DNA of 64,000 bases from an uncultured Enterobacterales bacterium (GTDB taxonomy: Bacteria; Myxococcota_A; UBA796; CAZKWG01): contig CAZTOW010000023.1 in NCBI GenBank assembly GCA_964615375.1, forward strand, positions 43,866 to 107,865, in the 5' to 3' direction. Of the stretch, positions 30,056 through 47,752 are shown piece by piece. Position 1 is the stretch's first letter. Every line of letters begins with the position of its first letter. Both the position numbers and the translations under genes were made by a program. Under the pieces are notes generated by a model. That model worked only from the letters and a program-made list of their open reading frames with translations, did no database searches and was not told the DNA's origin.

Positions 30056-30259
30056 GACGCACGTCTCCATGCCCGCCGGGGTTGACCGGCAGTCGGGCAA
30101 GCGGGCGAAAGCCAGCCTACCGGGCCAGCAGTCAGGAGACGGCGTAAATCCGTCGTTTGACACGGTGGAACCTGCGCGCATAGATGGGCGCAGGCCCGGG
30201 GGTGTAGTTCACTCCTACCTCCTGGGCTTAGGCCCGTCGGGGAGTTCGCACCTCCACGG

Positions 30260-31810
30260 CGGGCCGTTCTCGTTGTGCCTCCAGGGGTAGCACAGGGGGG
30301 CGACCCCTGTCCACCCCTCGCGGTCAGAGCGCTTCCTCGCCCCTACGATCTCCCCGTTCCCGCCGTCGTCCGGCGCGCCTCAACATCTCCCCCATCCCCC
30401 GGAAGACCCGATAGCGGGGATCGGGCGGGAGCTTCCCGAACGCCGACACCAGCGCGAGCACACGCTCCATGAGATCCCCGCCGGTCTCGCGGATCGTGGC
30501 CAGGAACGCATACAGGATGGTGGCGAGCAGGGCGATCCGCCGCACGCCGCGCAGGGTCAGCGCCCGCACGTCTTCGAGGTCCACGCCCCAGCCCCTGGAG
30601 TCCTTCATGGCCCGGGTCGCCTCCTCGCACTTCCAGCGCCGCCCGTAGGCGCGCGCCGCCTCCAGGATGGCCGCCTTCCCCTCCAGGTGCTCCGACGCCA
30701 GCAGGGCGAGGGGCTGCTTCCCGAAGCCCCAGACCACGATCAGGGTGCGCGCCTTCCCCTTCGGGCTCGGGTGGTTCTTCTGGTTGGAGAGGTAGACCTT
30801 CCGGGAGCCGACTTCGAGCGTGATCGTCTTCTTCCCCGCGCCCTTCGCCCGCTTCCGGCCCGCCTTGATCTCCATCTTGAAGCGGGGGATCACTTCGAGC
30901 GCGGCGTCCTCCACGCTCAGGCATCGGCCGTCCGCGGTGAAGACCTCGCGCTGGTTCTTCACCGCGTACTGAAGGCGGCAGATCCAGCGCAGGTTCAGGG
31001 CGTCGAGTCCGTCGAGGTAGCGGGTGTTGTCGAAGCCACGATCCGAGGTCCACCACGCGCGCGGCCCGATGGAGGGGGCGGCGATTCGGATCTGCTCCAG
31101 GAAGACGGAGGTCTGAGAGGACTTCGCGATCTCCTCGTAGCTGAACGGATGCAGGAGGACGGGGATCTGAAGCTCGCCGAGGTCGGCTTCGAGCTGCACC
31201 ACGGGGTAGCCGAGCCCGGTCTCCCCGTCCGAGCCGTTCCAGCACCGCGAGACCCCCTCCATGCCCCGCTCGGGGTCCGGGTTCGCCCAGGGCTTGGCCA
31301 GGTCGGTGTAGTCCACCGCCACCACCACGCCCTCGCCGTCGTCGCGGCGCGCGTGACGGGCCACCACGTCCAGGTGACGGGCCAGCAGGGCCGCGTCGTC
31401 CAGGCGATCCGAGTTCAGCCCCCGGCTCAGTCGCTTCTCCGTGTGGATGAGGCGACGGGGATCGCCGTCCTCGGCCTCCTCGTCCAGCGCGCGCCCGATC
31501 TCGGAGAGCATCGGCGACTTCGAGATCGCCATGCCCCGGAGCATATCGGCGATCCAGCGCTGGTTCGGGACGTACTGATCCTGTCCGACCTCCGCGCAGA
31601 AGTCGGCCAGGGCTCGCGTGATCGCAGCCACGGCGCACCCGTTTGCAGCCGGCGGGAGCGCGCGCTAAGCTGGGTGTGCGTGCCAAGCGCACCCGAGCCC
31701 ACGACCTCGCCGGGTTGGGGTTCTGGTTCCAGCGCCCGCGGTGTTCTCAGCACCGCGGGCGTTGTCGTTTCTGACCCCTTGATCTTAGCCGGTCGAACAC
31801 GAGAAATCAC
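30260..31810 (-). mobile_element. IS4-family insertion sequence (ends approximate and not confidently defined)
   Basis: Single DDE transposase ORF. An 11-bp perfect hairpin at 31733-31761 lies upstream of the transposase start. Only weak candidate terminal repeats were found (TTCTCGT at 30267-30273 and its complement near 31799-31805). Followed by a lower-GC islet. Confidence 0.45.
30324..31631 (-). CDS. IS4-family DDE transposase
   Basis: 435 aa, GTG start. Exact Y-(2)-R-(3)-E-(6)-K signature in AYGRRWKCEEATRAMK. Upstream DDE-like motifs VVAVDYTD and WWTSDRGF. Confidence 0.85.
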   Translation of the reverse strand: MAAITRALADFCAEVGQDQYVPNQRWIADMLRGMAISKSPMLSEIGRALDEEAEDGDPRRLIHTEKRLSRGLNSDRLDDAALLARHLDVVARHARRDDGEGVVVAVDYTDLAKPWANPDPERGMEGVSRCWNGSDGETGLGYPVVQLEADLGELQIPVLLHPFSYEEIAKSSQTSVFLEQIRIAAPSIGPRAWWTSDRGFDNTRYLDGLDALNLRWICRLQYAVKNQREVFTADGRCLSVEDAALEVIPRFKMEIKAGRKRAKGAGKKTITLEVGSRKVYLSNQKNHPSPKGKARTLIVVWGFGKQPLALLASEHLEGKAAILEAARAYGRRWKCEEATRAMKDSRGWGVDLEDVRALTLRGVRRIALLATILYAFLATIRETGGDLMERVLALVSAFGKLPPDPRYRVFRGMGEMLRRAGRRRERGDRRGEEAL

Positions 31811-32084
31811 GCTGCGAAGGCTTGATTTGGCTCGAATGCGGACAGAAGTTGTCCGCGCCGTTGGGCCCGCTGGCAGCCTCCGGGACGGGTGTCTCGGGCC
31901 GGGGGCCGCGAGACGGGTGTGCGGGCTCCGGCGCGTCGTGGCGGGGACGCAGCGCGGCGGGATGGGCATCGGCGATCAGGGATCGCCGGGGGTGGTACCG
32001 GGGCGCGGTGGCGGATCTGACTGGATCTACGCCGGTATCGAATTAGTGGCTGCTGCACTACACTCACAATGGAAGTACGCCATC

Positions 32085-32531
32085 ATGGACTACAAGAGCA
32101 CCCGAACAGCCGTAAAGGTCGATGACATTGCCGTTCTCGCGTCTTGGCTCATGGCCGCACGTCCCTCGATATCGTTCGACGACTGCGTGTTCGAGGCGCT
32201 GCACACTATCATCGACCTGAACCGACAGCCCCAGGCCCCGACATGGCGTTCTCCAGTGGTTCTGGAACTGGCCCGAACCCTGCTGCTCCGGGAGCCAAAC
32301 ACCCCGCTGCTGGATCACTTTAAGGAGGCCATTCGGCTCAAGACCGAGGGGTTGACTGCCACTCTCATGAGGGGAGGGAAGATCTCGGGCGCCGAAGGGG
32401 CGATCTACTATGTCGTTCGCAATGTGCATCGCGGGGAGGCAGACGTGACGCAGGTCATCGGAGATATCGAGCTATATGCCGAGCTTAACGACGAGAATTC
32501 CAGCTCAGTCGATCCGGTGGAGGGACGCTGA
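32085..32531 (+). CDS. Hypothetical protein in the lower-GC islet
   Basis: ATG 32085 (MDYKSTRTAVKVDD...), 148 aa, balanced amino-acid composition unlike the shadow ORFs. No family recognised. Confidence 0.5.
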   Translation: MDYKSTRTAVKVDDIAVLASWLMAARPSISFDDCVFEALHTIIDLNRQPQAPTWRSPVVLELARTLLLREPNTPLLDHFKEAIRLKTEGLTATLMRGGKISGAEGAIYYVVRNVHRGEADVTQVIGDIELYAELNDENSSSVDPVEGR

Positions 32532-32732
32532 AAGCTGCCCAAGGGGACCTGCTCCTTCCGCCAGAGAGATCGCTTCATATGCCAGCATGATCGACAGGGG
32601 TAAAGGAAGATTGGCCTGGAGCGCCCGTTGAACCTCCTCGGAAAGCTGAACGTAGAGATCGAACATAGCGCGCGCTGGGCGCTGGGTGCCGGTCTCGGTC
32701 GCCTCGGTGACGGTCTCGCGCAGCTCGGACAT
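32505..32732 (-). CDS. Small hypothetical protein (75 aa), convergent with and overlapping the previous gene by 27 nt
   Basis: ATG 32732 (MSELRETVTEATETG...). Helical-looking sequence; weak support. Confidence 0.3.
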   Translation of the reverse strand: MSELRETVTEATETGTQRPARAMFDLYVQLSEEVQRALQANLPLPLSIMLAYEAISLAEGAGPLGQLSASLHRID

Positions 32733-32865
32733 GGACACCTCCGGGTCGGGTGATACCCGCTCGACTGGTGCCATGTGGTGAGCCCTGTGCGACGGCTGAC
32801 GGATCGCGATAGAGGCCGCCATCAGGGACCGTGCTACTCGATGAACAAGCAGAGGGAGACCCACG

Positions 32866-33327
32866 ATGTCGATGAAACACCCGCTACTGAGCATCATCAG
32901 CCTGTTATCGGTCTTCGTACTCGCCTGTGCTGGCGACGACGCCGGCAAGGGCGAGTCAGGGGACACTGGAGAGGAGAATCAGGAAGCCGACTGGCTCGTT
33001 GCGGATCTCGCTCTGGTGCCAAATAGTCTGAACTATGCGGCCGTAACTGGCGTCGTGACCCTTCAGGGTGACCTTGCGGGCGCAGGGACGATGGCTGAGG
33101 TTCGCTACTACCAGGACGACTACACCACGCTCATCACCGACGCCTCTGAGATGATCGGCAGCGATCTCGAAGAGATCGGCACGACACAGGCGTTTGAGCT
33201 CACCCACTACACGGTCTACGTGCTGCCCGCTATCGGGGGATACGCCTATGTCTGCGCCAGCTTCCGCGCAGATGACTCGAACTATGAGGACTGGACGGAG
33301 GTAGGTTGCCTTGAAGGCGTTGAGTGA
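32866..33327 (+). CDS. Hypothetical lipoprotein (lower-GC islet)
   Basis: Signal plus lipobox MSMKHPLLSIISLLSVFVLAC, then an acidic linker GDDAGKGESGDTGEE. No family recognised. Confidence 0.6.
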   Translation: MSMKHPLLSIISLLSVFVLACAGDDAGKGESGDTGEENQEADWLVADLALVPNSLNYAAVTGVVTLQGDLAGAGTMAEVRYYQDDYTTLITDASEMIGSDLEEIGTTQAFELTHYTVYVLPAIGGYAYVCASFRADDSNYEDWTEVGCLEGVE

Positions 33328-33406
33328 AAGTCGGCGCCGAACGCCGATTCCCGACAACTTCAGCGCCCATCTGAAAAGTCGTCGTTTTCCTGGCCTTCAC
33401 CCGGGA

Positions 33407-34868: not shown

Positions 34869-36929
34869 ATGCCGGGTTTCGGATGGCTGCACCTCACCGA
34901 CCTGCACGCCCCCGGCGTCGGCGGCTTCCGCACGCTCTGGCCGAACGTGGAGGAGCAGCTCTACGAGGACCTGGGGCGCATGCACGACCGCTCGGGGCCC
35001 TGGGATCTGGTGCTGTTCACCGGTGATCTGACGCAGCGCGGCTCGGCCTCCGAGTTCGCCGCCCTCGACGAGCTGCTCGGCGCCCTCTGGGAGCACCTGC
35101 GCGCGCTCGGCTCCGACCCCGCCCTCTTCGCCGTCCCCGGCAACCACGACCTGGCCCGCCCCGACCCGCGCCGCCCCGAGGTGCGCCTGCTGGCCCGCTG
35201 GGAGGACAACCCGGACGTGCAGCGCGAGCTCTGGGCCGACCCGCTGAGCCCCTACCGGCGCCTGCTGGAGGAGAGCTTCTCGGCGTACTCCAGCTGGTCC
35301 TCGGCCCCGAAGATCCGGGCGCCGGGCGAGCTGCTGAGCGGGATGCTGCCCGGGGACCGCAGCGCCGTGCTGGAGAAGGAGGGCGCCCGCCTCGGGCTGC
35401 TGGGGCTGAACACAGCCTTCCTCCAGCTCGGGGACGGGGCCTGGCAGGGGAGGCTGGCCCTGGACACGGCCCAGTTTCACGCCGCCACGGGCGGGGACGG
35501 GGCGCGCTGGGCCCGGGGCTGCGACGCCGCCCTCCTGCTCACCCACCACGGCCCCCACTGGCTGGACAAGCTCAGCAACGAAGCGCTCAACGGCGAGATC
35601 GCGCCCCCCGGTCGCTTCCTGGCCCACCTCTACGGCCACATGCACGAGCCCGCCGCCCAGCAGCTCGCCGTGGGCGGCGCCCAGCCCTGGCGGCGCTGGC
35701 AGGGGGCGAGCCTGTTCGGGCTGGAGGGTTGGGGCGCCAGCCAGGACCGCAGCCACGGATACAGCGCTGCCCGGCTGGAGATCGACGGCCAGGGCCAGGG
35801 GCGGCTGCGCCTCTTCCCCCGCGCCGCGGTCAAGCACCAGGCCGGCTTCTGGCACCTCGGCGCCGACCGCAGCTACGTGCTCGAGGACGACGGCGGCACC
35901 ACCCCCGAGACCGTCCCCCTGCGCCGCCGCCGCCCCCGGGTGGGCGGGCTCCAGCCCGGCCAGGACATCATCACGCTCCCCATCCCCGAGCCCCCGCTCC
36001 CGCCGGAGAGCTGCGAGGCCCTGCTGGCCCTGGCCGACGGGGTCCACGACGAGGACGTCGAGCGGGTGAGCAAGATGATGGGCCGCGGCGAGTACGTGGC
36101 CCTCCTGGCCCCCGCCGGCTTCCGCCTCCCGCTGGCCATGCGCGCCCTGGCCGAGCGCCTGGCGAAGCGCAAGGACATGGTCGCCTTCCGCGTGACGCCG
36201 CTCACCCTCGCCGAGACCATGGACGACTGGCTGGACCACCTCCTGCGCGAGCTCGGCGCCCGGGTGGGCGGCCTCCAGGTCAGCGCGCGCGGCAACCGCC
36301 TGCTGGCCCTGCTGTACGCGCTCCAGGACGCGGCCCGGGCGCTCACCGATCGCGGCGCGCGCCTGATGGTGCTGGTCGATCCGGTGGAGAGCTTCGCGGG
36401 CGAGCACCGCGAGCGCGTCGTGCGCCTGCTGCAGGTGCTGGCCCAGCTCTCCGAGGAGCGCACCAACGATCCCAGCCTGGAGAGCGTGGGCGTGGCCATG
36501 TCCGGGGGCGAGGAGCTCCAGCGCATCCTGGCCGGGCGGGTGGTGGTCAGCGCGGACCTGTCCCCGGTGCGGGCCAGCATGCAGACCGTGCTGGGCCCGG
36601 TGCTGCCGCCCCAGGGCGCCGACCCCGCCGTCCGCGCCGTGGTCGAGGCCGTGGGCGGCCACCCCGAGCTGGTGCGCTGGGCGGCCAACCGCGGCGGGCG
36701 CTTCCTGGGTCGGCCCGAGGACGAGCTCCCCCTCCTGGCGCGCCAGGTCGAGCGCTTCCGCGCCGGCCTCTTCCGCGACCAGCTCCAGCGCCTCCTGGCG
36801 GGCGAGACCGCCGCCTGGAAGGACCCCGATCCCGCCCTCCGCTGGAGCGGCTGGCTGCGCCTGGACACCCCCGGCTGGCTGGGCCCCGTGCTGGAGGAGC
36901 TCGCGCGAAGGGCGGCGGGCCCCGGATGA
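34869..36929 (+). CDS. Cytoplasmic calcineurin-like metallophosphoesterase fused to a degenerate (P-loop-dead) NTPase-like domain
   Basis: No signal peptide. MPE motifs in canonical order: HLTDLH (34890-34907), GDLTQRG, GNHD (35139-35150), LLTHHGP, YGHMH. The C-terminal ~330 aa have an NTPase-like layout, but the Walker A position reads LLAPAGFRLP (36093-36131) and the Walker B position MVLVDPVE (36360-36395). Stop overlaps the next start (ATGA). Confidence 0.85.
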   Translation: MPGFGWLHLTDLHAPGVGGFRTLWPNVEEQLYEDLGRMHDRSGPWDLVLFTGDLTQRGSASEFAALDELLGALWEHLRALGSDPALFAVPGNHDLARPDPRRPEVRLLARWEDNPDVQRELWADPLSPYRRLLEESFSAYSSWSSAPKIRAPGELLSGMLPGDRSAVLEKEGARLGLLGLNTAFLQLGDGAWQGRLALDTAQFHAATGGDGARWARGCDAALLLTHHGPHWLDKLSNEALNGEIAPPGRFLAHLYGHMHEPAAQQLAVGGAQPWRRWQGASLFGLEGWGASQDRSHGYSAARLEIDGQGQGRLRLFPRAAVKHQAGFWHLGADRSYVLEDDGGTTPETVPLRRRRPRVGGLQPGQDIITLPIPEPPLPPESCEALLALADGVHDEDVERVSKMMGRGEYVALLAPAGFRLPLAMRALAERLAKRKDMVAFRVTPLTLAETMDDWLDHLLRELGARVGGLQVSARGNRLLALLYALQDAARALTDRGARLMVLVDPVESFAGEHRERVVRLLQVLAQLSEERTNDPSLESVGVAMSGGEELQRILAGRVVVSADLSPVRASMQTVLGPVLPPQGADPAVRAVVEAVGGHPELVRWAANRGGRFLGRPEDELPLLARQVERFRAGLFRDQLQRLLAGETAAWKDPDPALRWSGWLRLDTPGWLGPVLEELARRAAGPG

Positions 36930-39900
36930 GCGCGCGCCTCCCCCTCCTCGCGCTGCTCCTCGGCCTCACCGTGCAGGCCGCGAAGGACGTGCGCGAGGTG
37001 CTCCGCGCCACCGCCCTGCGCCTCCCCTCCGACCCCGAGGGCCAGGACCCCTGGGCCGGCGGCCGGGTGGAGGTCTGTTGGAGCGCGCCCGGCGCGGATC
37101 CCACCCTGGCCGTGCGCGTCTACGCGGGCTCGCTGGACGAGCCGATGAGCGCCTGGGAGCCGGTCGCCGGCCCGCTCCTGGGGCGGAGCTGCTGGCGGGG
37201 CCCCTGGGAGCCCGACCGCGCCTGGGCCGTGGCGCCCGTCCGAGACGGGGTGGAGGGCGAGCGGGCGCTGGCCCGGGGCACGGCGCTGCGGGCGCGGTCC
37301 CGGGTCCCTGTCGAGGCGCGCCTGGAGGGCGATCAGGTCACGGCCATCGCCGAGGGCGGGGGACGGCTCTGGTTCGCCACCGACGGCGGCGGGCTCAGCG
37401 CCGCGCCGCTCTCCGGCGACCTCGCCCCCTGGGAGGCGCCCTGGACCACCTGGCGACAGGCCGACGGGCCCGGCGCCGACCGGCTGGGGGCTGTGCTCTA
37501 CGAGGCCGCCGCCTCCCGCGTGTGGGTGGGGGCGCGCGGGCGCGTGGCGGCGCTCAACCTCCAGGACGGGACCTGGCGGGCCTACGGCGTCCGCGACGGC
37601 CTGCCCGAGGGCCTGATCACCACCCTCCTGGTGCCCGAGCTCGGATCCGTGGTCGCCGCGGCCGAGGGCGGTCAGATCGTCCAGTTCGATCCTCGCTCCG
37701 AGCGCTGGGTGACCCTGGCGGAACTCGAGACGCAGGATCCTGGCGCCCGCGTGCTGGGCGCGGACGGGGACGGTCGCTTCTGGATCTCGACGTCCGAGGG
37801 CCTCCGTTCATTCAACCCGCGCGACGATCGCTGGGCGCGGCTCGCCTGCCCCGGGCGCGTCACGGCCATGCTGCACGACGCCGCGGGCCAGCTCTGGTTC
37901 GGCACCGAGGACGCCGGGCTGATGGTGGTCCGCGAGGGGCGCTGCGAGCCCGTCTCGGCGCCCCCGGACGGCGCCTGGCCCGCCATCCGCGCCCTCCTGG
38001 ACGGGGAGCGCGGCCCGCTGGTCGGCGCCGATCGCGGCCTGCTCCGCTGGGTCAGCGCCGAGGGCCGCTGGGAGAGCGGGGCCTCCGATCCCTCCCTCGC
38101 CGGCCTGGCGGGTCTGCCGATCACCGGCCTCCACCGCGACGAGCGCGGCGCGCTGTGGGTGGCGGTCCGGCACGAGGGCCTGCGGCGCGTGGACCCCGAC
38201 GGGGCGGTCAGCGCGGCCCGGCCGGCGAGCGTGCTGCGGGCGGGCCCGGTGGGCGTCGTCATCACCACCAACGGCCAGGTCTGGTTCGGCTCGGAGGGTG
38301 GGATCAGCCGGCTCACCCTGGGGACGGGGGCGTGGAGCTGGTGGCGCTCGCCCAGCGTCGGCGTCACCGGGGGCGTCAGCGCGCTGGCCGTGGGCGGGGC
38401 GGGCGAGCTCCAGACCCTCTGGGCGGGGGGCCAGGGCGCCGTGGCCCGCTTCCTCCCCACCATGGAGCGCTGGGACAGCTTCGCCCTCCCGCGCCCCGAG
38501 TCCCGGGTCCTCTCCATCCTCGTGGACGAGCCCGCCCTCTGGGTGGGCACCGACGCGGGGCTGCTGCGCTTCGATCTGGCCAGCGGCGCCTGGGACGAGC
38601 CCTTCCGCGGCGGCTGGCTGGAGCGCGCGCGCGTCCAGGCCCTCCTGCGGGACAGCGCCGGGGGCCTCTGGGTCGGCACCCCCCAGGGCGCGCTGCGGCT
38701 CGAGGCCAGCGAGGGCCTGGAGCTCCTGCCCGCGGGCGGGGCCCTCAGCGGCCTGGACGTGGCGGCCATCGAGCAGGACGGCAGCGGGGCGCTGTGGTTC
38801 TCGTCCACCCGGGGCGATCTGGTCCAGCTCCTCCCCGCCAGCGGGGACACGCGGCGCGTGCAGCTCGACCCGGGCGACGCGATCACGGGGATGGCGCTGA
38901 ATTACGACCGGCTGTGGTTCGCCTCGGAGCGGGGCCTCTCGGTGCGGGAGAGCGCGCGCTTCGACGGGGGCCTCCAGCAGCGGGTCGAGGCGCGCGGCAC
39001 CCGCGGGGTGGCGGTGGACAGCGGCGGGCGGGTCTGGCTGGCCACGGCGCGCGGCGCGCTGCGCTGGGACCCGGAGACGGGGATCTCCCGCCGCTATCCG
39101 GCGGCCCTCGGCGAGCCCGAGGACGAGGCGCGGGTGCGGGCCTCGGTCACCGCGGGGGGCGGGCGGGTCTGGCTGGGCACCGAGGCGGGCAGCGTGCTGC
39201 TGGTGGACGCCCAGGGCGTCGTCCGCGACCGCCTGGACGGCGAAGACGGGCTCCCCGGCGCGCCGGTGCGGGCCCTCTACTGGGACGAGGTCGGTGAGCT
39301 GTGGATCGGGACGGAGGGGGGCGGGCTCGTGCGCGTGAAGGTCGCCGCGAGCGGCGTGGGCGCGCCTGAGGCCATGCAGATCTACCGGGCGGCCGACGGG
39401 CTGGGGAGCGATCAGGTCCTGGCCCTGACCAGCCGGGTGTCGGGCGAGCTGAGCGTGCTCACCGACCGCGGCGCCGTCCTCTTCGAGAAGGCCAGCGGCT
39501 TCCGGCCCCTCAGCCTGCCCAGCGGGCTGCGGGGCGCGCTGCGCAGCTTCGCCTGGCGCGGGCTCGACGAGCTGTGGGTGGGCACGGGCGAGGCCGTCGG
39601 CTGGCGCGTCCAGCCCTCGGGGCAGGCGCCGATCCGGGTGCGGGAGCCCGCCCCGGGCGCGAGCTGGGCCACGGGCGTCAACGTCTTCTTCAAGGACCAG
39701 GACGGGAACCTCTGGCTCGGGCTGGAGGGCGGCGGCCTCGGCCGGAAGGGGGAGCAGGGCGTGGAGCCCGTCACGGTGGACGGCGCGGGGCCCGGCCTCG
39801 AGGTGCGCGCCATCCGCGAGGCCGCCGGGCGCATCTGGCTGGCGACGAACCAGGGCGCCTTCTGGCGTCCGGTGGGGAGCCCGCAGGGCTACGAGCAGAC

Positions 39901-42799
39901 CAACGCCCCCCTGGACACCCAGGGGCTGCCCGAGCGGCGCTGGACGCGCGCGGACGCCCTGGACCTGGGCCCCGGGACGCAGGAGATCTGGGACTTGAGC
40001 CCGGACGCCTCCGAGGGGATGTGGTTCGCCACCGACGCGGGCGCCCTCCGCCTGGATCTCGGCGTCGGGACGGCTCTCCGCGTGGACCCCGCCGCCCCGC
40101 CCCAGGCGGGCCCCGCCCTGCTCTCCGGGGAGCCCGTGGGTGTCGCCCTGCGCGGCGTCGCCGCCTTCGTGCGCGGGGACCGGCTGCTGGGCGAGCCCTC
40201 CGCCCCCGGGGCCGTGCGCGCGGCGGTCTCGGCCTGCGGCGAGTCCGATCTGCTCCTGGACAACGGCGAGATCCTGCGGGTGCTGGGCCAGGGCCTCTCC
40301 CGCGAGGTCGTCCACGCTCCGCTGGCGACGCCCCGCGCCCTGGCCGTGCTCTGTTCGGAGGGCGCGCTCTCGGGCGCCTCCAGCCTCTGCGTAGGCGGGG
40401 ACGGGCTCTGGTGCCGGGGGATGGCGGGCCAGTGGACGGCGCTCTCTCTGCCCCTCCAGGATCCAGGCGCCGCGATCACCGCGCTCTACGCCCACGGCGC
40501 GGAGCTCTGGGCGGGTCACGAGGACGGGGAGGTCTGCCGCGCGGCGACCGGCGCGGCCTCCAGCGTCGCCTGCGTCACGCCCACCCCCTCCCTGGGCCCC
40601 GTGCGCGCCCTGGTGGAGGACGGGGCGGGCGGGGTCTGGGTGGGCGGCGACCGCGGCCTCGGGCGCCTGGTCCTGGGAGCGACGGGCGAGCTGACCGTGG
40701 TGGAGCCCCCGCGCCCGCTGCGCGCCCAGGGCGACGGCGAGCTCCAGTCGGGCATGAGCCTGGACCTCGCCGGCGCGGCGGTGAGCGGGCTCGACTTCGA
40801 CCGCGCCACCGGGACCCTCTGGGTCACCATGCCCGATCGCGGCGTCGTGCGCGTCGGCCAGCCCGCGCGCCGCTCCTTCTTCCGCAAGGCCGTCTCCCCC
40901 GTCGAGCGCACCGAGCCCGCCCCAAGCCTGGGTGGATCGGAGCGCCTCGAGGGGGTGGTCGTGGACGCCGCCTCCCGGGTCTGGGTGAGCGAGGGCGGCG
41001 GCCTCTACGAGCTCGACGGGCGCGCGCCGCCCACGTCCACGATGTGGGTGTTGACCCTGGCGATCGGGGGCGGGCTCACGGTCTTCGCGCTGGTCTGGGG
41101 CAGCATCCACTTCAGCCCGGTGGTGCGCGGGTGGCGCCGCGATCCCAGCTCGGTGGAGCGGGTTGGGCTAGATAATCTAGCTCCAGCCCTGCGCGTGCTC
41201 CGCCTCTACGCCCCCGGCTTTGCCCGGGCGTCCATCGGCTTCACGCGGCTGGGCGCGCTGGAGCGGCTGGCGCGGGTGTGGGGAGGCGCGCCCGAGCGGG
41301 TGCTCCCCGCGGCGGCCGAGGTGCTGGGTCTGGAGCCCGAGGGCGAGATCAAGGAGGCGTCTCTGCAGGTTCAGCTCTCGCTGGGGCTGGCGCTCAAGCG
41401 CAGGGACACGCTGCTGGTGCTGCTGCCGCAGGAGGGCGACCCCGACGCCTTCCTGCGCGAGCGCCTGGAGGCCCGCGCCTTCCACGAGCTCACCCCGGCC
41501 CTGGCCATCTGGCCCGGGGACGAGCCGCCCTTCCTGCACGGCGCCGTCTCGCTCACCGAGGCCGATCTGCGCGCGGTGGGCTGGTCGCGGCAGCCGAAGC
41601 GGGCGCTGGCCGGGCTGGTCTGGCAGCGCTCGGACATGCAGGGGCTCTCGCCCTACCAGGCGCACGGGGCCGTGCAGGACCCCCGGATGTTCTTCGGGCG
41701 GGACGCCGTCCTGCGCGAGCTCACCGCCGCCGGGCGTCGCCGGGCGCTCCTGGTCATCGGGCCCCGCCGCGTGGGCAAGACCAGCGTGCTGTTGCGTGCC
41801 GCCGCCGAGCTCGAGCGCCGCGGCGCCCGCACCGTCTACGTCACCCTGCGGGCCACCGTCGCCGGGCCCTACGATCTGGCCGTCGCGCTGGCCCGCGCCG
41901 CCCGCCTGCCCCTGCCGGATCCCCCGTCGGAGGAGAGCTCGGGGGCGGAGGCGGCGGGCCTGGGCGCCTGGATCCGGGCCAACCTGAGCGGGGCCAACCT
42001 CCTGCTGGACGAGGCCGACGCCTTTCTGCGCAATGACCGCGCGCGGGGCAGCCAGACCTCGGAGGAGCTGCGCTCGCTCATCCAGGAGGGCGTCTGCGCG
42101 CTGGCCCTGGCCGGCTACGGCACGCTCTACCGCGCCGCGCTCTCCCAGGCGGAGACCGCCTACAACCTGGGCGAGCCGCTCTTCCTCGGCAGCCTGGAGC
42201 GCGAGGCCGCCCTGCGTCTCGCCACCGAGCCCATGGAGCGGGTGGGCATCCAGTGGGCGGACCCGGAGCTGGCCGAGCGCCTGGTGGCGACGCTGGGCAT
42301 GTTGCCCCACCTGATTCAGGAGGCCTGCAGGCGCCTGCTGCTGCGCGTGCGCGGCTTCCGCGAGCCCGTGTTGAACTCCGCCGATCTGTACGCGGTGCTG
42401 GGCGACTGGCGTCCCGAGGGCGAGCCGTCCAGCCTGCGCGAGTTGCTTGTCATCAACGTGGAGACCAACCTGAAGGGCCCGGCCCAGGCCGCCGTCTGGC
42501 TGCTGGCGGACGAGCTGAGCGTCGGGTTTTCGCTCTCCGAGCTGGGTGACGCGCTGCACGGCGCGGGCTTCGTGGATCTGGACACCGAGCGTGTGTTGGA
42601 GATCGGGCTCGCGTTGCAGGTAGCCGGCGTGTGTCAGCGCGGGGCGGACCACCACCGCTTCCTGGTGCCCCTGCTGGGCGAGGCGGTGAGCCACCTGGAC
42701 GTCGGCTACCGGGTGGCCGGGCTGCGGGACGCCTGGAAGGCGATGGAGCCTGGGGCCCGGCGGGGCTTCAAGTTCTGGGGCGGGGAGGGGGAGGGGTGA
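36926..42799 (+). CDS. 1,957-aa membrane sensor: signal peptide, extracytoplasmic multi-beta-propeller (two-component-regulator-propeller-type blades), one TM helix, cytoplasmic AAA+/STAND-type P-loop NTPase
   Basis: ATG 36926. Signal peptide MSARLPLLALLLGLTVQAA. More than 20 copies of G-x-(L/V/I)-W-(F/V/I)-(G/A)-(T/S)-x-x-G-(L/A), e.g. GRLWFATDGGGL, GQLWFGTEDAGL, GELWIGTEGGGL. TM helix MWVLTLAIGGGLTVFALVWGSIHF (41042-41113). FFGRD...LLVIGPRRVGKTS Walker A (41759-41785). NLLLDEAD Walker B (41996-42019). Confidence 0.85.
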   Translation: MSARLPLLALLLGLTVQAAKDVREVLRATALRLPSDPEGQDPWAGGRVEVCWSAPGADPTLAVRVYAGSLDEPMSAWEPVAGPLLGRSCWRGPWEPDRAWAVAPVRDGVEGERALARGTALRARSRVPVEARLEGDQVTAIAEGGGRLWFATDGGGLSAAPLSGDLAPWEAPWTTWRQADGPGADRLGAVLYEAAASRVWVGARGRVAALNLQDGTWRAYGVRDGLPEGLITTLLVPELGSVVAAAEGGQIVQFDPRSERWVTLAELETQDPGARVLGADGDGRFWISTSEGLRSFNPRDDRWARLACPGRVTAMLHDAAGQLWFGTEDAGLMVVREGRCEPVSAPPDGAWPAIRALLDGERGPLVGADRGLLRWVSAEGRWESGASDPSLAGLAGLPITGLHRDERGALWVAVRHEGLRRVDPDGAVSAARPASVLRAGPVGVVITTNGQVWFGSEGGISRLTLGTGAWSWWRSPSVGVTGGVSALAVGGAGELQTLWAGGQGAVARFLPTMERWDSFALPRPESRVLSILVDEPALWVGTDAGLLRFDLASGAWDEPFRGGWLERARVQALLRDSAGGLWVGTPQGALRLEASEGLELLPAGGALSGLDVAAIEQDGSGALWFSSTRGDLVQLLPASGDTRRVQLDPGDAITGMALNYDRLWFASERGLSVRESARFDGGLQQRVEARGTRGVAVDSGGRVWLATARGALRWDPETGISRRYPAALGEPEDEARVRASVTAGGGRVWLGTEAGSVLLVDAQGVVRDRLDGEDGLPGAPVRALYWDEVGELWIGTEGGGLVRVKVAASGVGAPEAMQIYRAADGLGSDQVLALTSRVSGELSVLTDRGAVLFEKASGFRPLSLPSGLRGALRSFAWRGLDELWVGTGEAVGWRVQPSGQAPIRVREPAPGASWATGVNVFFKDQDGNLWLGLEGGGLGRKGEQGVEPVTVDGAGPGLEVRAIREAAGRIWLATNQGAFWRPVGSPQGYEQTNAPLDTQGLPERRWTRADALDLGPGTQEIWDLSPDASEGMWFATDAGALRLDLGVGTALRVDPAAPPQAGPALLSGEPVGVALRGVAAFVRGDRLLGEPSAPGAVRAAVSACGESDLLLDNGEILRVLGQGLSREVVHAPLATPRALAVLCSEGALSGASSLCVGGDGLWCRGMAGQWTALSLPLQDPGAAITALYAHGAELWAGHEDGEVCRAATGAASSVACVTPTPSLGPVRALVEDGAGGVWVGGDRGLGRLVLGATGELTVVEPPRPLRAQGDGELQSGMSLDLAGAAVSGLDFDRATGTLWVTMPDRGVVRVGQPARRSFFRKAVSPVERTEPAPSLGGSERLEGVVVDAASRVWVSEGGGLYELDGRAPPTSTMWVLTLAIGGGLTVFALVWGSIHFSPVVRGWRRDPSSVERVGLDNLAPALRVLRLYAPGFARASIGFTRLGALERLARVWGGAPERVLPAAAEVLGLEPEGEIKEASLQVQLSLGLALKRRDTLLVLLPQEGDPDAFLRERLEARAFHELTPALAIWPGDEPPFLHGAVSLTEADLRAVGWSRQPKRALAGLVWQRSDMQGLSPYQAHGAVQDPRMFFGRDAVLRELTAAGRRRALLVIGPRRVGKTSVLLRAAAELERRGARTVYVTLRATVAGPYDLAVALARAARLPLPDPPSEESSGAEAAGLGAWIRANLSGANLLLDEADAFLRNDRARGSQTSEELRSLIQEGVCALALAGYGTLYRAALSQAETAYNLGEPLFLGSLEREAALRLATEPMERVGIQWADPELAERLVATLGMLPHLIQEACRRLLLRVRGFREPVLNSADLYAVLGDWRPEGEPSSLRELLVINVETNLKGPAQAAVWLLADELSVGFSLSELGDALHGAGFVDLDTERVLEIGLALQVAGVCQRGADHHRFLVPLLGEAVSHLDVGYRVAGLRDAWKAMEPGARRGFKFWGGEGEG

Positions 42800-42999: not shown

Positions 43000-43125
43000 T
43001 CGGCGCGGCTGTGCGGAGGGTCAGCCTCTCTGCGGCGGGGGCGGTGGTGCGCACCCACGTGAGCCGAGGGCCCTTCATTCTCCTCTCGCCGACCGAGCTC
43101 TCGTGGGTGATACTATGACCTGCCA
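42876..43125 (+). repeat. Direct repeat copy 1 (~250 bp): cassette gene 3' end + intergenic spacer + next start codon region
   Basis: Aligns base-for-base with 43513-43762 (offset 637 nt). I counted only about 6 mismatches before similarity decays after the ATG, and roughly 140 bp are identical. Confidence 0.9.
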
Positions 43126-43636
43126 GATCCGTTGCCCTGGCGGGAAGCCGAATGCCCGGCGCCAATCCCCATCGCTGATAGGATGCATGGTATGGATGAG
43201 TCTTTCAGGGTGTTCTAGTGAACTGGTCCCTCAGAATGGTGGCTATCTGTTTGATGGTGTTGCATATGTGCAGGACTGCGCGGGTGGTGATGATACAGGA
43301 GGTTGGCCGCTGCTAGAGTACGACCTTCAGCATGCGTCGAGCGCGCGGATCCGAGATGTTCGTGGGCGAGACTTTCAGTTTGCCACTATCATCTCGTCTC
43401 GTGTAGTCAACGTGCTCACCCTCGACTGTAGCATCACAGACGCCGACGCCCACACCTTCGAATGCTCCCCCTACACCGACGGGCAGGGGAACTCCTGGTC
43501 CGCGACCGGCGTCTGGCTGAGCGACACCGTGTTTCGGGGCCGCGTCCAATACGTCGGCGCCACGGACGGCGAGGACGCAGAGCGCTGCGACGGGTACTGG
43601 CTGTTCACGGCCTCCTGGGCTGGAGAGCTCCCATGA
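43115..43636 (+). CDS. Small Cys-containing lipoprotein, cassette paralogue 1
   Basis: Lipobox MSLSGC (ATG 43115; GTG 43103 also possible). Visibly lower-GC body. Conserved family motifs GGY.F, DC, LDC, AHTFEC, GVWLSDT, GYWLF. Confidence 0.7.
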   Translation: MTCQIRCPGGKPNARRQSPSLIGCMVWMSLSGCSSELVPQNGGYLFDGVAYVQDCAGGDDTGGWPLLEYDLQHASSARIRDVRGRDFQFATIISSRVVNVLTLDCSITDADAHTFECSPYTDGQGNSWSATGVWLSDTVFRGRVQYVGATDGEDAERCDGYWLFTASWAGELP

Positions 43637-43762
43637 TCGGCGCGGCTGTGCGGAGGGTCAGCCTCTCTGCAGCGGGGGCGGTGGTGCGCACCTACGTGAG
43701 CCGAGGGCCTTTCATTCTCCTCTCGCCGACCGAGCTCTCGTGGGTGATCCTATGACATGCCT
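43513..43762 (+). repeat. Direct repeat copy 2 (~250 bp)
   Basis: See copy 1 at 42876-43125. Confidence 0.9.
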
Positions 43763-44276
43763 GACCAGTTCTCTCAGGATTCGATGGAATGCCCGGCGCT
43801 TGCCCCTCCTGCTGGTTTCGTGCCTGATGCTGCCTGACTTGTTCGGGTGTTCCGATGAATGGACGCCTCTGGAGGGAGGGTACTGGTTCGACGACGTCAC
43901 GTACGTACCGGACTGCGCGGCCGCTGACGATACGGGTGGATGGCCGCTGACGAAGTACAGTAATCTAGAGGGGGGGGGATTGGGGATTGATGACGTTCAC
44001 GAGGCAGCCTTTCATCTTACAATGTCTGCCCTTTACACTTCTTGGTTCAACACCCTTTCTATGGATTGTCACCTCACAGATACAGACGCCCACACCTTCG
44101 AATGCTCCACCTACGCCGACAGTCAAGGGAATTCCTGGACCTCGAGCGGCGTCTGGCTCAGCGACACCAATTTGCGTGGCCGCAATGAGTATGTTGGCGT
44201 CACAGACACCGATGACGCGGATCCCTGCAAAGGTTACTGGCTGTTTTCGGCTTACTGGGTTGGTCCGCCCCTATGA
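43752..44276 (+). CDS. Small Cys-containing lipoprotein, cassette paralogue 2
   Basis: Signal plus lipobox RRLPLLLVSCLMLPDLFGC. Shares GGYWF, DC, MDC, DAHTFEC, GNSW, GVWLSDT, GYWLF with paralogue 1, roughly half the residues by eye. Lower-GC body. Confidence 0.7.
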   Translation: MTCLTSSLRIRWNARRLPLLLVSCLMLPDLFGCSDEWTPLEGGYWFDDVTYVPDCAAADDTGGWPLTKYSNLEGGGLGIDDVHEAAFHLTMSALYTSWFNTLSMDCHLTDTDAHTFECSTYADSQGNSWTSSGVWLSDTNLRGRNEYVGVTDTDDADPCKGYWLFSAYWVGPPL

Positions 44277-44348
44277 TCGGCGACCGCCTGCCGCGACCGA
44301 CGGGATTCGCCCTGTCCCTCCAACCCTACACGACACACGGAGAGCCCC

Positions 44349-44705
44349 ATGGCCACACAGTCCCGCCGTATCCTGGACCGTCAGACGCTCGTCACCGGCG
44401 ACGCGATGGATCTCACCGAGGCGACGGACCTCGCGGAGTACAGCACGCTGGAGATCGTGATCACGGTGCACACGGCGGACACGCCCGAGGCGGGCGCGAG
44501 CGCCGCGGAGCTGGTGGTGCGGCACGCGCCCGTGGCAGAGGAGGACGGCTGGCTGGACTTCGAGACCGCCGTGACCGTGGATCTGAGCGTGGCGGGGAAG
44601 ACCTGGCGTCACATCTCGTCGTTCACGCGCTTCCTCGGGTGGTCGGTCTCGGGGAGCCTGGCGTCCTCGGCCGTGGTGACGCTCGACGTCGTGGCGAAGG
44701 ACTGA
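44349..44705 (+). CDS. Small acidic cytoplasmic hypothetical protein (118 aa) embedded in the lipoprotein array
   Basis: ATG 44349 preceded by GGAGAG. No signal peptide. Beta-strand-like pattern (TLEIVITVHT, ELVVRHAP, AVTVDLSV, AVVTLDVV). Stop is 4 nt before the next start. Confidence 0.55.
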   Translation: MATQSRRILDRQTLVTGDAMDLTEATDLAEYSTLEIVITVHTADTPEAGASAAELVVRHAPVAEEDGWLDFETAVTVDLSVAGKTWRHISSFTRFLGWSVSGSLASSAVVTLDVVAKD

Positions 44706-44709
44706 GCCG

Positions 44710-45198
44710 ATGGCGCCGACCCCGGGTCGCGTTCATCGGGTCCTGATCGGGCACACGCCCCTGGTCCTCTCCCTGCTCACGAGCTGTGGATTCCGCCCGG
44801 AGGAGGGCACCTACGCCGTCACCGACGTGATCGGTCGGCTGGAGTGCTGGCAGACCGGGGAGACGGTCACGACGATCGAGGACGAGGGTGGCGAGCTGGT
44901 CGTGAGCGGCGTGGACCGGGAGCTCTTCAACCTCCACCTCGGGAGCTGCCCTGGCGGGATGTGCACCACGCTCGACGTCTCGTGCGTGCTGGGCGAGGTC
45001 GGCGAGCTCGCGTTCGCATGCGATCCGATCATCGACGCCGACGATCAGATGTGGGGCGTGAGCGGGGTGTGGCTCTCGACGACGGCCTTGCAGGCGCAGC
45101 TCACCTACGACTCCTGCTCGGAGGGGCGGTGGTACGGGGACTGCGCGTGCCTGGGGGACTGGTTCTTCGACGCCGCGCTGGCGGGGGTGGAGGGCTGA
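44710..45198 (+). CDS. Small Cys-rich lipoprotein, distant cassette paralogue 3
   Basis: Lipobox LVLSLLTSC. Retains GTY...V, FACD, MWGVSGVWLSTT and GDWFFDA equivalents of the family motifs, with extra cysteines. High GC like the host. Confidence 0.65.
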   Translation: MAPTPGRVHRVLIGHTPLVLSLLTSCGFRPEEGTYAVTDVIGRLECWQTGETVTTIEDEGGELVVSGVDRELFNLHLGSCPGGMCTTLDVSCVLGEVGELAFACDPIIDADDQMWGVSGVWLSTTALQAQLTYDSCSEGRWYGDCACLGDWFFDAALAGVEG

Positions 45199-45213
45199 TC
45201 ATCCGAGAGCGGC

Positions 45214-45237
45214 CCCCTCGGCCCCTGCGCCGAGGGG
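45214..45237. terminator. GC-rich hairpin between convergent genes (9-bp stem CCCCTCGGC / GCCGAGGGG, 6-nt loop)
   Basis: Read directly. It lies between the stop at 45198 (+) and the stop at 45247 (-). No U-tract. Confidence 0.45.
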
Positions 45238-45246
45238 CTCCAGCCC

Positions 45247-46413
45247 TCAATCGTCGTACGCCGGGGGCCAGACCCCCCGGTCCAGGAGCGGCAGGACCCG
45301 GAGCTCCACCTCGCCCGCGGGCAGGCCGGCGGGGAGGGCGAGCGCCTCGGGCAGGGGGAGCACGGGCCGACCCAGGATCCAGCGCGCGCCGAGGCCGCTG
45401 ACCCGAGGGCGGGCGCCGACCACCCAGGACGTCCCCACGGCGGGCTGGGCGAGGACCACGCAGGAGGCGCCCTCGCAGCGCTCCCGCCAGGCGACGATCT
45501 CCTGGATGTGGATGGAGCTGCTGCGCTCGCCGGCGCGCAGCTCGAGGAAGCCATCCGGGCTCAGGCTCACCTGGTCGGGGACGCGGATCTCGGCCGGCGG
45601 CGCGGGGGCGGGCGTGGCGGGCCGGGTGGTGCGGGGGCCACCACTCCCCAGCACGGGCAGCTCCCCGAAGCGGTCGACGAGCCCGTCCAGGCCGCGCGTG
45701 AACGTTCCCCAGGGCACGTCGTCGTCGATCGTGAACACCAGGAAGGGCGAGGTGTCGAGGCCGCTCGTGGCGGCCAGGAGCTCGTCCACGGTCGGCCAGG
45801 GGTCTCCGCCGGGCGGGAGCGGCGCGCGCACGAAGAGCGTGTCCGTGTATCCGGCGCCGATCTCGTCGGAGCGGAGGTGGACGGTCAGCGGCGGCCTCCC
45901 GATGGCCGCGCCGATCCCAACCTCCCGCCCGACCGCGGTGGGGACGGCCCAGCCGCGCGTGGCGTCGGGGGCCTCCTCCAGGTCCCAGTGGGTGTAGCCC
46001 AGGGTCTCGAGGGTGTAGAGGGCGGGGCGGATCTCGCCGAAGGTGCGCGTCGGAGCGACCCAGATCCGGGCCCGGCACTCGCCGGGGAGCCCCTCGCCGA
46101 CGGACAGGCAGGGCCCGCCGAGGGCCTCCTCCAGGGCGGGGATCGTCCTGGTCTGCGGATCCTCCGAGGGGTCGAGCCGTGTGCGCCCGAGGCACAGCAC
46201 GCCGTCGGCGTCCATCACGAGCCGCGCCGAGCCCTCGGGCAGCGGGCCGGTCGCGCGCGCCCACTCGGGCGACGGGGGCGCGCAGGCGGCGAGGCAGGCC
46301 GCCGCGAAGAGGCCGCTGAGCCAGCACCTCGCTCCGATCACCGCGCCTCCTCCTTCTGGTCGACCATAGCGGACGCCAGGGGTTCCCGCTGAGGCTTGAC
46401 GTTCGCGGGGCAT
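45247..46413 (-). CDS. Hypothetical lipoprotein
   Basis: Lipobox-like LFAAACLAAC after an Arg-rich N-terminus (an internal start is possible). Coding-like composition; no confident family. Confidence 0.6.
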   Translation of the reverse strand: MPRERQASAGTPGVRYGRPEGGGAVIGARCWLSGLFAAACLAACAPPSPEWARATGPLPEGSARLVMDADGVLCLGRTRLDPSEDPQTRTIPALEEALGGPCLSVGEGLPGECRARIWVAPTRTFGEIRPALYTLETLGYTHWDLEEAPDATRGWAVPTAVGREVGIGAAIGRPPLTVHLRSDEIGAGYTDTLFVRAPLPPGGDPWPTVDELLAATSGLDTSPFLVFTIDDDVPWGTFTRGLDGLVDRFGELPVLGSGGPRTTRPATPAPAPPAEIRVPDQVSLSPDGFLELRAGERSSSIHIQEIVAWRERCEGASCVVLAQPAVGTSWVVGARPRVSGLGARWILGRPVLPLPEALALPAGLPAGEVELRVLPLLDRGVWPPAYDD

Positions 46414-46458
46414 CGGTCACCATGGTGTCCATCCCGTCCTCTCGCAGGAGCACGCCTC

Positions 46459-47469: not shown

Positions 47470-47565
47470 TCTATCTGTGATTCATGCGGATAATAGATGA
47501 GCACTTCGCGCCCCGCGGTCGAGGTTCGGATTCCGGAGCTGAATAATTCGAGGTAATATCCGGCG

Positions 47566-47603
47566 AATCAAACAAAATATATAAATATATTAAATTGTAA
47601 TTG
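47566..47603. promoter_or_regulatory. Extreme AT-rich patch containing the palindrome AATATAT-AA-ATATATT
   Basis: AATCAAACAAAATATATAAATATATTAAATTGTAATT sits in otherwise ~70% GC DNA. The palindrome is at 47576-47591, 150-190 nt upstream of the gene starting at 47753. Confidence 0.4.
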
Positions 47604-47752
47604 CCGATCGGTTGCAATCTCGTCCTGCTGGTATACGCTCTCGGTGTGGGTCAGATTCCCGGGGGACACGAACAGATCCCCGGCGGCCCACCGGGCGGCG
47701 TGCGTCGGCACGGCGCCCCGAGCTCGCGTCTCACCCCCGAAGGAGGTCCACC

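Follow-up and report, generated by a model that had tools for sequence, protein, structure and literature searches.

Two kinds of described system lie closest to the genes reported here. In the text of Kaur, Iyer, Burroughs & Aravind (eLife 2021, PMC8195603), operons are predicted that combine an active STAND (signal transduction ATPase with numerous domains) with an eroded STAND fused to variable effectors, and hetero-toroids are predicted for them. The anti-phage systems DS-8 and DS-9 were reported with DefensePredictor (Science 2026, PMC13092281); DS-8 is a metallophosphatase-NACHT protein and SMPDL3A homologue that protects E. coli from phage and needs both the catalytic residues of its metallophosphoesterase (MPE) domain and its NTPase (PMC13092281). 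Multi-transmembrane bNACHTs may sense membrane or periplasmic signals, although this has been offered only as a suggestion (Kibby et al., bioRxiv 2022.07.19.500537). Here we describe two overlapping genes, A and B, in a stretch of 64,000 nucleotides of contig CAZTOW010000023.1 (the window, meaning the whole stretch that was analysed), and compare them with these systems.

34869..36929, plus strand: gene A, 686 amino acids (aa), ATG at 34869 and stop at 36929; predicted cytoplasmic effector-adaptor with an MPE domain and an inactive STAND module.
36926..36929, plus strand: ATGA overlap between the stop of A and the start of B, a translational coupling; the 4-nt overlap is kept in the loci L001, L004, L006, L009 and L061 from other genomes.
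36926..42799, plus strand: gene B, 1957 aa; predicted type-I membrane receptor with a C-terminal STAND NTPase.

The analysis indicates that A and B probably form a two-gene STAND-type conflict module, serving immunity or regulated cell death, with a sensor that faces the periplasm. To our knowledge, every bacterial STAND, Avs or bNACHT receptor that has been characterised by experiment detects its ligand in the cytoplasm. The GC content of the window is about 72%, and both same-strand open reading frames (ORFs) showed strong coding bias (GC content at third codon positions 0.97 or typical). Because of this bias and their orthologues, A and B are taken to be real genes and not chance ORFs of a genome with 72% GC.

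The features of gene A are as follows.

34869..35903, plus strand: MPE domain (aa 1-345), calcineurin-like and SMPDL3A-like, with all metal-binding motifs intact (Pfam PF00149).
35904..36023, plus strand: linker (aa 346-385), Pro/Arg-rich, modelled with low confidence (pLDDT <50 at aa 357-372) and the least conserved part of A.
36024..36926, plus strand: inactive STAND (iSTAND) module (aa 386-686), AAA_35-derived; predicted docking module for B.
36093..36128, plus strand: eroded Walker A (aa 409-420, VALLAPAGFRLP), in which GK[ST] has become RLP; active relatives have APLHFGKT or GPDKFGKT.
36654..36665, plus strand: GGHP (aa 596-599), a GxP-type motif of the STAND helical/winged-helix region, invariant in the alignments.

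An earlier note on this DNA had described A as a protein of 686 aa with all calcineurin-like motifs and no signal peptide, and this was borne out. Residues 7-261 matched Pfam Metallophos (PF00149; E 8.8e-12, 46.3 bits against a cut-off of 21.5), no hydrophobic segment was found at the N-terminus, and the catalytic motifs (D11-x-H13, G52-D53, G91-N92-H93-D94, H226 and G256-H257-x-H259) were invariant in 53 homologues. The AlphaFold2 (AF2) model of A (pLDDT 88) has two domains, and Foldseek placed the MPE domain with YydB, SMPDL3A, Rv0805, purple acid phosphatase (PAP), GpdQ and Mre11. More than 1000 proteins retrieved with A share its N-terminal MPE domain at about 50% identity, and among such proteins the domain is joined to AAA_35, NACHT, NB-ARC, TIR, effector-associated domains (EADs), SAVED, CHAT or kinase plus FGE. 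This partner repertoire is that of NTP-dependent conflict systems.

The earlier note had overlooked the second half of A, which reads as an inactivated STAND module. It is 35-40% identical to the AAA_35 module of MPE-AAA_35 proteins from Nannocystis, Plesiocystis, Pseudenhygromyxa and Sorangium, and its predicted fold is AAA+, Cdc6/ORC/MalT/Dark-like (AF2 and Foldseek). At the P-loop, A and its orthologues have APAGFRLP, a version ending in -RLS or -RLG, or a deletion, and the Walker A GK[ST] was lost in all adaptor proteins aligned. A direct BLASTP comparison of the C-terminal half of A with the nucleotide-binding oligomerisation domain (NOD) of B was not significant; hhalign joined the two over about 250 columns (88% probability, E 3e-6), with the eroded P-loop/Walker A, the Walker B and the GxP motif (GGHP in A, GMLP in B) in register. 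As judged from its sequence and model, A is an effector-iSTAND protein in which an MPE domain is carried on an inactivated STAND module, and this dead module is likely the physical link to B.

Gene B is composed of the following parts.

36926..36982, plus strand: putative Sec-type signal peptide (aa 1-19, MSARLPLLALLLGLTVQAA); a signal-peptide-like N-terminus is present in 41 of 63 homologues with a transmembrane (TM) helix.
37328..41005, plus strand: about 23 Reg_prop-type propeller blades (aa 135-1360) in about 3 propellers, predicted periplasmic, fast-evolving.
41042..41113, plus strand: single TM helix (aa 1373-1396) by hydropathy, followed by the basic stretch RGWRRD; an equivalent helix is present in 63 of 88 long homologues.
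41114..41635, plus strand: juxtamembrane domain (aa 1397-1570), about 175 aa, alpha/beta, with HPxV...LPxAxRxL; conserved across the family.
41636..42796, plus strand: STAND NOD (aa 1571-1957) with P-loop, helical and winged-helix parts, nSTAND1/MNS-clade-like.
41690..41704, plus strand: FFGRD (aa 1589-1593), the hhGR[DE] motif before the P-loop (MFFGRD); F1589, G1591 and R1592 invariant in 31 homologues.
41759..41785, plus strand: Walker A GPRRVGKTS (aa 1612-1620); R1614, G1617, K1618 and S1620 invariant in 31 homologues.
41999..42019, plus strand: Walker B LLLDEAD (aa 1692-1698); D1695, E1696 and D1698 invariant in 31 homologues.
42296..42307, plus strand: GMLP (aa 1791-1794), GxP-type; G395 and P398 (cytoplasmic numbering) invariant in a 4-sequence alignment.

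The ORF of 1,957 aa, its signal-peptide-like N-terminus and its one TM helix at 41042-41113, all read by the earlier note, were recovered, the latter two by hydropathy. From hydropathy and the positive-inside rule we infer that the ectodomain is exported. Pfam Reg_prop (PF07494) scored 126.6 bits, and a hidden Markov model built from B's own blades resolved aa 135-1360 into 16 strong blades and about 7 weaker ones, so that the "more than 20 blades" claimed before are reached with the degenerate blades counted and not with the strong blades alone. No Pfam model matched the juxtamembrane domain. The NTPase matched Pfam nSTAND1 (31.6 bits, cut-off 27.1) as well as AAA_22 and AAA_16, and nSTAND2 was not matched. 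The motifs FFGRD, GPRRVGKTS and LLLDEAD stood as first read, except that the spacer between the first two is 18 residues long and not 17. The AF2 model of aa 1397-1957 (pLDDT 84.9, pTM 0.82) showed a folded juxtamembrane domain followed by the NOD. The best PDB match by sequence was 2fna (SSO1545, an archaeal STAND-like ATPase), and Foldseek returned 2fna (TMt 0.62), 2qen (PAB2304), ORC/Cdc6, RuvB and the wheat resistosome 9h2l, a plant NLR.

An hhGR[DE]-type motif preceding the P-loop strand is a feature of STAND NTPases. B has this motif together with Walker A and B, a NOD with GxP and a match to a curated model, which agrees with the STAND-like switch suggested by the earlier note. A repeat sensor C-terminal to the NOD and in the same compartment, which is typical of STANDs and not strictly defining, is lacking, since the repeats of B lie N-terminal to the NOD and across the TM helix. 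Family-wide sequence comparison directly supports B as a type-I inner-membrane receptor whose multi-propeller ectodomain (about 1,350 aa) would be the variable ligand-binding part, and likewise supports its NTPase as a catalytically competent STAND. The Pfam scan of B (E<=0.1) found no Y_Y_Y, HisKA/HATPase_c, REC or HTH and no other output domain. This agrees with the absence of a kinase or receiver output noted before, and B as a hybrid two-component sensor was rejected on this ground.

The pairing of A with B was then followed in other genomes. In the close orthologues L001-L005 the A-B pair was kept and so was the wider synteny, and because that synteny is shared these loci alone say little on a functional linkage. 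In L006, a metagenome-assembled genome (MAG) of UBA796 Myxococcota, A-B was kept with a different left neighbour. In all these loci and in the window the dead module carries an MPE as its N-terminal part. The dead module also lies directly upstream of B-like genes in more distant genomes, in the same orientation and in most cases overlapping them by 4 nt, and there its N-terminal part is TIR (L009; L038, a Thiodictyon MAG; L061, Sorangium sp. So ce834) or Trypsin_2 (L014, L017 and L018, three Myxococcales MAGs), or no effector was recognised (L062, 387 aa; L063, 358 aa). The protein P0124 has 1964 aa with the order Reg_prop-TM-nSTAND1, and its cytoplasmic domain is 55% identical to that of B. 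Upstream of it, with a 4-nt overlap, stands a 575-aa TIR protein whose C-terminal half is the dead module with YVALLAPSGFGV, GGHPEL and the C-terminal W...W motifs. A word-indexed profile search with the adaptor module gave 9 matches, for which reason the census of adaptor-fused effectors is incomplete; it found the TIR protein of Sorangium sp. So ce834 and two effector-less proteins, and the next gene was a Reg_prop...AAA_22/nSTAND1 giant in all three cases.

A direct fusion was also found. P0121 (831 aa, soluble) joins an MPE-like domain to the B-type juxtamembrane and NTPase module, its match covering part of the B juxtamembrane domain (query residues 63 onwards); the catalytic residues of its MPE-like domain are lost (DxH to DLR, GD to GH, GNHD to GRLD). 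In the soluble pairs L007 and L008 (Nannocystis, Plesiocystis), an MPE-AAA_35 gene overlaps an AAA_35-WD40 gene. Because soluble MPE-AAA_35 is coupled to AAA_35-WD40, two cooperating NODs, one bearing the effector and the other the sensor, appear to be the ancestral logic of the gene family of A.

These comparisons directly support the view that A and B are co-inherited, with the effector on the adaptor swapped between lineages, as far as gene order and domain content can tell. In Myxococcota, Polyangia, Sorangium and Thiodictyon the pair turns up again beside other flanks and with other effectors, which is evidence independent of the shared synteny. The earlier note had proposed a transmembrane STAND-like NTPase with a propeller sensor, coupled to a phosphoesterase, and had named linkage of A and B homologues in other genomes as a check. 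Pairing in independent lineages was found, and together with the effector swaps and the P0121 fusion it supports that proposal. It would be very improbable, given this recurrence, that A and B are merely adjacent, with A doing housekeeping work as a phosphatase and B serving at the surface or in the periplasm as a structural or adhesion protein that has an ATPase tail. The wider synteny shared by close orthologues, no proof of linkage by itself, leaves room for such an arrangement; the conserved start/stop overlap, the homologous NOD modules in A and B and the fusion P0121 argue against it. As a stand-alone housekeeping phosphatase A was ruled out by the conserved dead-NOD adaptor, the recurrent pairing and the existing fusion.

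Evolutionary rates were compared between the window and the orthologues L001 and L004, with dS similar across segments (about 0.44-0.66).

B ectodomain: 50% aa identity, dN/dS 0.70-0.71.
B TM helix and juxtamembrane domain: 69-73% aa identity, dN/dS 0.31-0.41.
B NTPase: 84-88% aa identity, dN/dS 0.15-0.22.
A MPE domain: 77-82% aa identity, dN/dS 0.20-0.27.
A dead NOD: 75-80% aa identity, dN/dS 0.33-0.34.

Because dN/dS differs at similar dS, the sensor-like part diversifies several-fold faster than the engine and the effector. The rate of the ectodomain may be that of an immune receptor in an arms race or may reflect relaxed constraint.

Inactive NTPase paralogues are often inhibitors, and A could accordingly be a negative regulator or decoy, its dead NOD capping or poisoning the B oligomer in a dominant-negative manner or sequestering the MPE until B is activated; alternatively, B could have an output of its own for which A is not needed. 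The dominant-negative roles of inactive domains stressed by Kaur et al. (2020), the adaptors of L062 and L063 in which no effector was recognised, and the catalytically dead MPE of P0121 all fit such a role. We nevertheless find it doubtful, since the MPE of A has kept its whole active site and evolves under purifying selection (dN/dS 0.20-0.27), the swaps to TIR and trypsin suggest that the adaptor carries an enzymatic output, and B has no other output domain.

The NTPase of B is a member of a large family: when the cytoplasmic region of B was searched exhaustively with HMMER, it gave 2173 representative clusters, 845 of them at E<1e-10; these counts were used because a word-indexed search with the same domain gave 2 matches and missed B itself. 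Among the 148 best homologues of the B NTPase, 88 have more than 450 aa before Walker A, and in 63 of these 88 a TM helix is predicted at a distance of 150-330 aa before that motif. The median ectodomain length is 840 aa, and the part that begins with Walker A and ends at the C-terminus measures about 315 aa. By sequence, the main architecture of the family puts a large ectodomain at the N-terminus and the NTPase at the C-terminus, with one TM helix between them. WD40 was found in 17 of the 31 ectodomains scanned, and others include Reg_prop, Reg_prop+BNR+Y_Y_Y and dCache-HAMP-GAF. The family spans hundreds of 50%-identity clusters in Myxococcota, Chloroflexota, Thiodictyon and other lineages with complex lifestyles, and in public annotation B-type proteins appear as "two-component regulator propeller domain-containing protein" or "ligand-binding sensor domain-containing protein".

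Among 51 genome loci, which were retrieved with a 4-sequence alignment and over-represent the "GPRRVGK" clade, at least 21 have NTPase genes in pairs. The Chloroflexota loci have an NTPase-Ser/Thr-kinase or nSTAND1-CHAT gene after the receptor gene (the partners in L021 and L023), and nSTAND2 was seen only in the Chloroflexota kinase partners. The partner there lies downstream of the receptor and has its effector at its C-terminus. In two further Chloroflexota loci, L039 (6147-9995) and L044 (3505-9978), dCache_1-HAMP-GAF or Reg_prop+BNR+Y_Y_Y is joined to the same C-terminal NTPase. P0129 (1993 aa) has two tandem juxtamembrane and NTPase units after its ectodomain and TM helix, a two-NOD theme within one chain. 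The closest match to the cytoplasmic domain of B in the genome collection, at 84% identity, is L010 (CAZKWG010000305.1). Its label, "uncultured Enterobacterales bacterium", is implausible for a high-GC, Myxococcota-like gene, and the contig is probably mis-binned.

The following mechanism is proposed for the conflict module, and it leans on two precedents, the hetero-toroids predicted in the text of Kaur et al. (2021) and the anti-phage protein DS-8. Binding of a ligand in the periplasm or envelope would relieve autoinhibition of the B NOD, which would exchange or bind NTP and oligomerise at the membrane; activation by a periplasmic ligand is a step that we infer. The dead NOD of A would co-assemble with the B NOD into a hetero-oligomer, as predicted for other pairs of active and inactive STANDs, and the MPE domains clustered in this way would be activated by proximity. 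The MPE would then hydrolyse a phosphodiester substrate, either a cyclic or linear nucleotide or a nucleic acid, and as an outcome the cell would stop growing or die, or a signal of the invader or competitor would be destroyed; the opponent may be a phage, a predator, or a kin or non-kin cell.

Several points weigh against a conflict function. The case for it is wholly computational, for A-B as for every family member, and the interaction between A and B is deduced from gene order, module homology and effector swapping. The signal peptide and topology of B come from hydropathy and the positive-inside rule only, and the inactive NOD could equally inhibit or cap B instead of carrying a recruited effector. 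Some B-like genes, e.g. those of L012 and L015, have no adjoining partner. The ectodomain dN/dS of about 0.7, high yet below 1, makes relaxed constraint possible instead of positive selection. A-B lies within a conserved chromosomal neighbourhood with no recognisable defence island, and PADLOC gave zero system-level matches for A and B. The earlier note had expected this silence, which held for whole systems and not for domains: A gave weak PADLOC matches to PDC-S60 (2.9e-8) and a generic effector (5.9e-7), B to mad8 (0.011), and NCBIfam gave weak partial DS8 and DS9_1 matches to A in which the MPE region alone was aligned. Lastly, the input modules of relatives (Reg_prop/Y_Y_Y and dCache-HAMP-GAF) are classic environmental-signalling modules.

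Some of these points would equally suit ordinary, non-immune signalling, in which B senses an envelope or environmental cue such as a glycan and its NTPase switch regulates A as a (cyclic-)nucleotide phosphodiesterase controlling second messengers, e.g. in myxobacterial development. Reg_prop blades are the sensor type of hybrid two-component systems, Y_Y_Y or dCache-HAMP-GAF serve as inputs in relatives, the locus is vertically inherited in a syntenic region outside any defence-island context, and PADLOC matched no system. In addition, the nearest structural neighbours of the MPE include cNMP/nucleotide phosphodiesterases (Rv0805, SMPDL3A, GpdQ), not nucleases. We still regard this explanation as unlikely. 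The exchange of the effector position among TIR, trypsin-like peptidase, CHAT and kinase is a signature of conflict systems and not of a single metabolic output, the MPE family of A also occurs in fusions with NACHT, NB-ARC, EAD and SAVED and is validated in the anti-phage systems DS-8 and DS-9, and divergence is several-fold faster in the ectodomain than in the other parts of the proteins. A conflict module is the reading that we prefer.

Three of the loci mentioned above showed further features. In L012, a proteobacterial MAG, an IS481 transposase fragment (5980-6612) occupies the adaptor/effector position upstream of the B-like receptor, with housekeeping genes otherwise nearby; the partner may have been lost by insertion. 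In L015 an asparaginase is encoded upstream of the partner-less B-like gene, as is a protein of 1044 aa (1993-5124) with two P-loop regions (AAA_16/NACHT-like and HerA/DUF87-like), which could be a component of a different conflict system. In L063 the adaptor P0279 is followed by a B-like gene (10611-16743) broken into many short ORFs (Reg_prop fragments ... AAA_22), which is either a pseudogene or the product of frameshift errors in long-read assembly.

The neighbours of A-B in the window are OEP, Uma2, RlmL and SDR genes. Promoter and terminator scans at both ends of the operon found none, and such scans are of little use at 72% GC. The Uma2-family gene (28619-29404, minus strand; PF05685, putative restriction-endonuclease-like) adjoins the OEP gene in L001 and L002 too. 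About 4 kb of the window (29450-33400) are missing from the otherwise collinear L001 and L004, where Uma2 directly adjoins the OEP gene. This segment holds a weak DDE_Tnp_1 transposase ORF (30324-31631, minus strand), a low-GC stretch (0.64) and small ORFs without a family, and is probably an insertion sequence or other mobile insertion beside the operon. A second segment missing from L001 and L004 (42800-49160, about 6.3 kb) lies between B and a conserved 738-aa gene; it has about 7 ORFs (43103-48811) and lower GC (0.67-0.70), and is a variable cargo region directly downstream of A-B. Apart from the weak DDE transposase, the ORFs of both insertions had no match in PADLOC, NCBIfam or Pfam.

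The 738-aa gene (49161-51377) and a 314-aa gene (51443-52387), both on the minus strand, are conserved and in L001 and L004 follow directly after A-B; neither of them matched a model of Pfam, NCBIfam or PADLOC. A second, unrelated calcineurin-like phosphoesterase of 447 aa (25052-26395, minus strand; Metallophos and Metallophos_2) has no STAND module and is kept in L001 (421 aa) inside the syntenic block; it is presumably a housekeeping enzyme.

The family comparison also permits a wider and more tentative idea, to which we give somewhat less than even chances. Bacteria may have widespread surface-type innate immune receptors, namely type-I membrane STANDs whose periplasmic ectodomains sense envelope molecules and which form a hetero-resistosome with an iSTAND effector adaptor. 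The ectodomains would be rapidly diversifying Reg_prop or WD40 propellers, BNR or Cache modules, the effectors MPE, TIR or protease, and the ligands, for example, phage tail or ejection proteins, proteins delivered by predators or by type VI secretion systems (T6SS) or outer membrane exchange (OME), or cell-wall damage. Detection would come before cytoplasmic events or be independent of them. If true, this would be a prokaryotic counterpart of the immunity conferred by Toll-like receptors (TLRs) and receptor-like proteins, built on an NLR engine.

For A-B itself, an exported sensor on a STAND receptor would bring NLR-like immunity or regulated cell death to the envelope, and would give a testable case of a signal of ligand binding that reaches a NOD through a single TM helix. 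With its swappable effectors, the constant dead-NOD adaptor offers a handle for genetics and a new system type for defence-finder tools. Were the function non-immune, the STAND NTPase would still be a new output class for classical extracytoplasmic sensor modules.

Compared with the nSTAND2 operons in the text of Kaur et al. (2021), A-B likewise consists of two adjacent STAND genes, one of them eroded and effector-bearing, with a predicted hetero-oligomer (there a toroid) as the working unit. Unlike in those operons, however, the active NTPase of A-B is nSTAND1/MNS-like and the inactive one AAA_35-derived, the effectors are MPE, TIR and trypsin instead of GT4 and HEPN, and the active partner is predicted to sit in the membrane as a type-I protein whose NOD is preceded by a huge propeller sensor in the periplasm. 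In the text passages of that paper used for the comparison (PMC8195603), there is no mention of a membrane receptor with an N-terminal periplasmic propeller sensor.

With DS-8, A-B shares an SMPDL3A-like MPE with intact catalytic residues and control by a STAND-type NTPase. DS-8 is a single cytoplasmic chain with an active NACHT and a cytoplasmic sensor, whereas the effector of A sits on a dead AAA_35-like module and sensing would fall to the separate transmembrane protein B. A scored 29.8 bits against the DS-8 model NF053861 (cut-off 790), and membership in DS-8 or Avs was ruled out by scores far below the cut-offs. As in Avs, bNACHT and NLR-type STANDs, an effector, a NOD and a fast-evolving repeat sensor are combined, and the effectors are swappable (TIR, protease, nuclease, phosphoesterase). 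In those proteins, however, the sensor is C-terminal and cytoplasmic, and effector and NOD share one chain; in A-B the sensor is N-terminal, apparently exported and separated by a TM helix, and the effector is on a second chain.

The MPE-AAA_35 proteins of L007 and L008 (Nannocystis, Plesiocystis) are the closest sequence relatives of A (35-40% identity over >90% of the length). These pairs resemble A-B in their translational coupling, two NODs and a beta-propeller sensor on the second protein; unlike in A-B, both NODs keep GK[ST], and the WD40 sensor is C-terminal and cytoplasmic, with no signal peptide or TM helix. Hybrid two-component sensors (Reg_prop-Y_Y_Y-TM-HK-REC-HTH, e.g. the Bacteroides BT4663 type) share with B a periplasmic Reg_prop ectodomain, a membrane helix and a cytoplasmic output, but the output of B is a STAND NTPase, and Y_Y_Y, HisKA, HATPase, REC and HTH are absent from it. 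Eukaryotic Toll-like receptors and plant receptor-like proteins also cross the membrane with a single TM helix, which joins an ectodomain of repeats to an assembly domain in the cytoplasm by which an effector or adaptor is recruited, and the partner in L009 and L061 is a TIR protein; this is an analogy of topology only, with no homology of ectodomain or cytoplasmic engine.

Because the defining features of the nSTAND2 two-gene systems, DS-8, Avs and the hybrid two-component sensors were each compared with A-B and found to differ, A-B is not a member of any of them. In the literature searched, which was covered incompletely and as text without figures (including Kaur 2020 and 2021, Kibby 2022, Doré 2024 and a 2026 STAND survey), no specific description was found of a transmembrane, periplasm-sensing STAND receptor with a propeller ectodomain. 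Within that coverage, three things appear undescribed so far: the type-I topology, in which an exported sensor at the N-terminus is followed by one TM helix, the juxtamembrane domain and a NOD at the C-terminus; the dead-NOD adaptor that derives from AAA_35; and the size of the receptor family. The novelty that the earlier note claimed for the whole architecture stands for the topology, and was too strong in view of Kaur et al. (2021), DS-8 and the suggestion made for TM-bNACHTs. Measured against these sources as far as their text goes, the logic of A-B is already known from pairs of active and inactive STANDs and from MPE-NACHT proteins, and its transmembrane, periplasm-facing topology is new.

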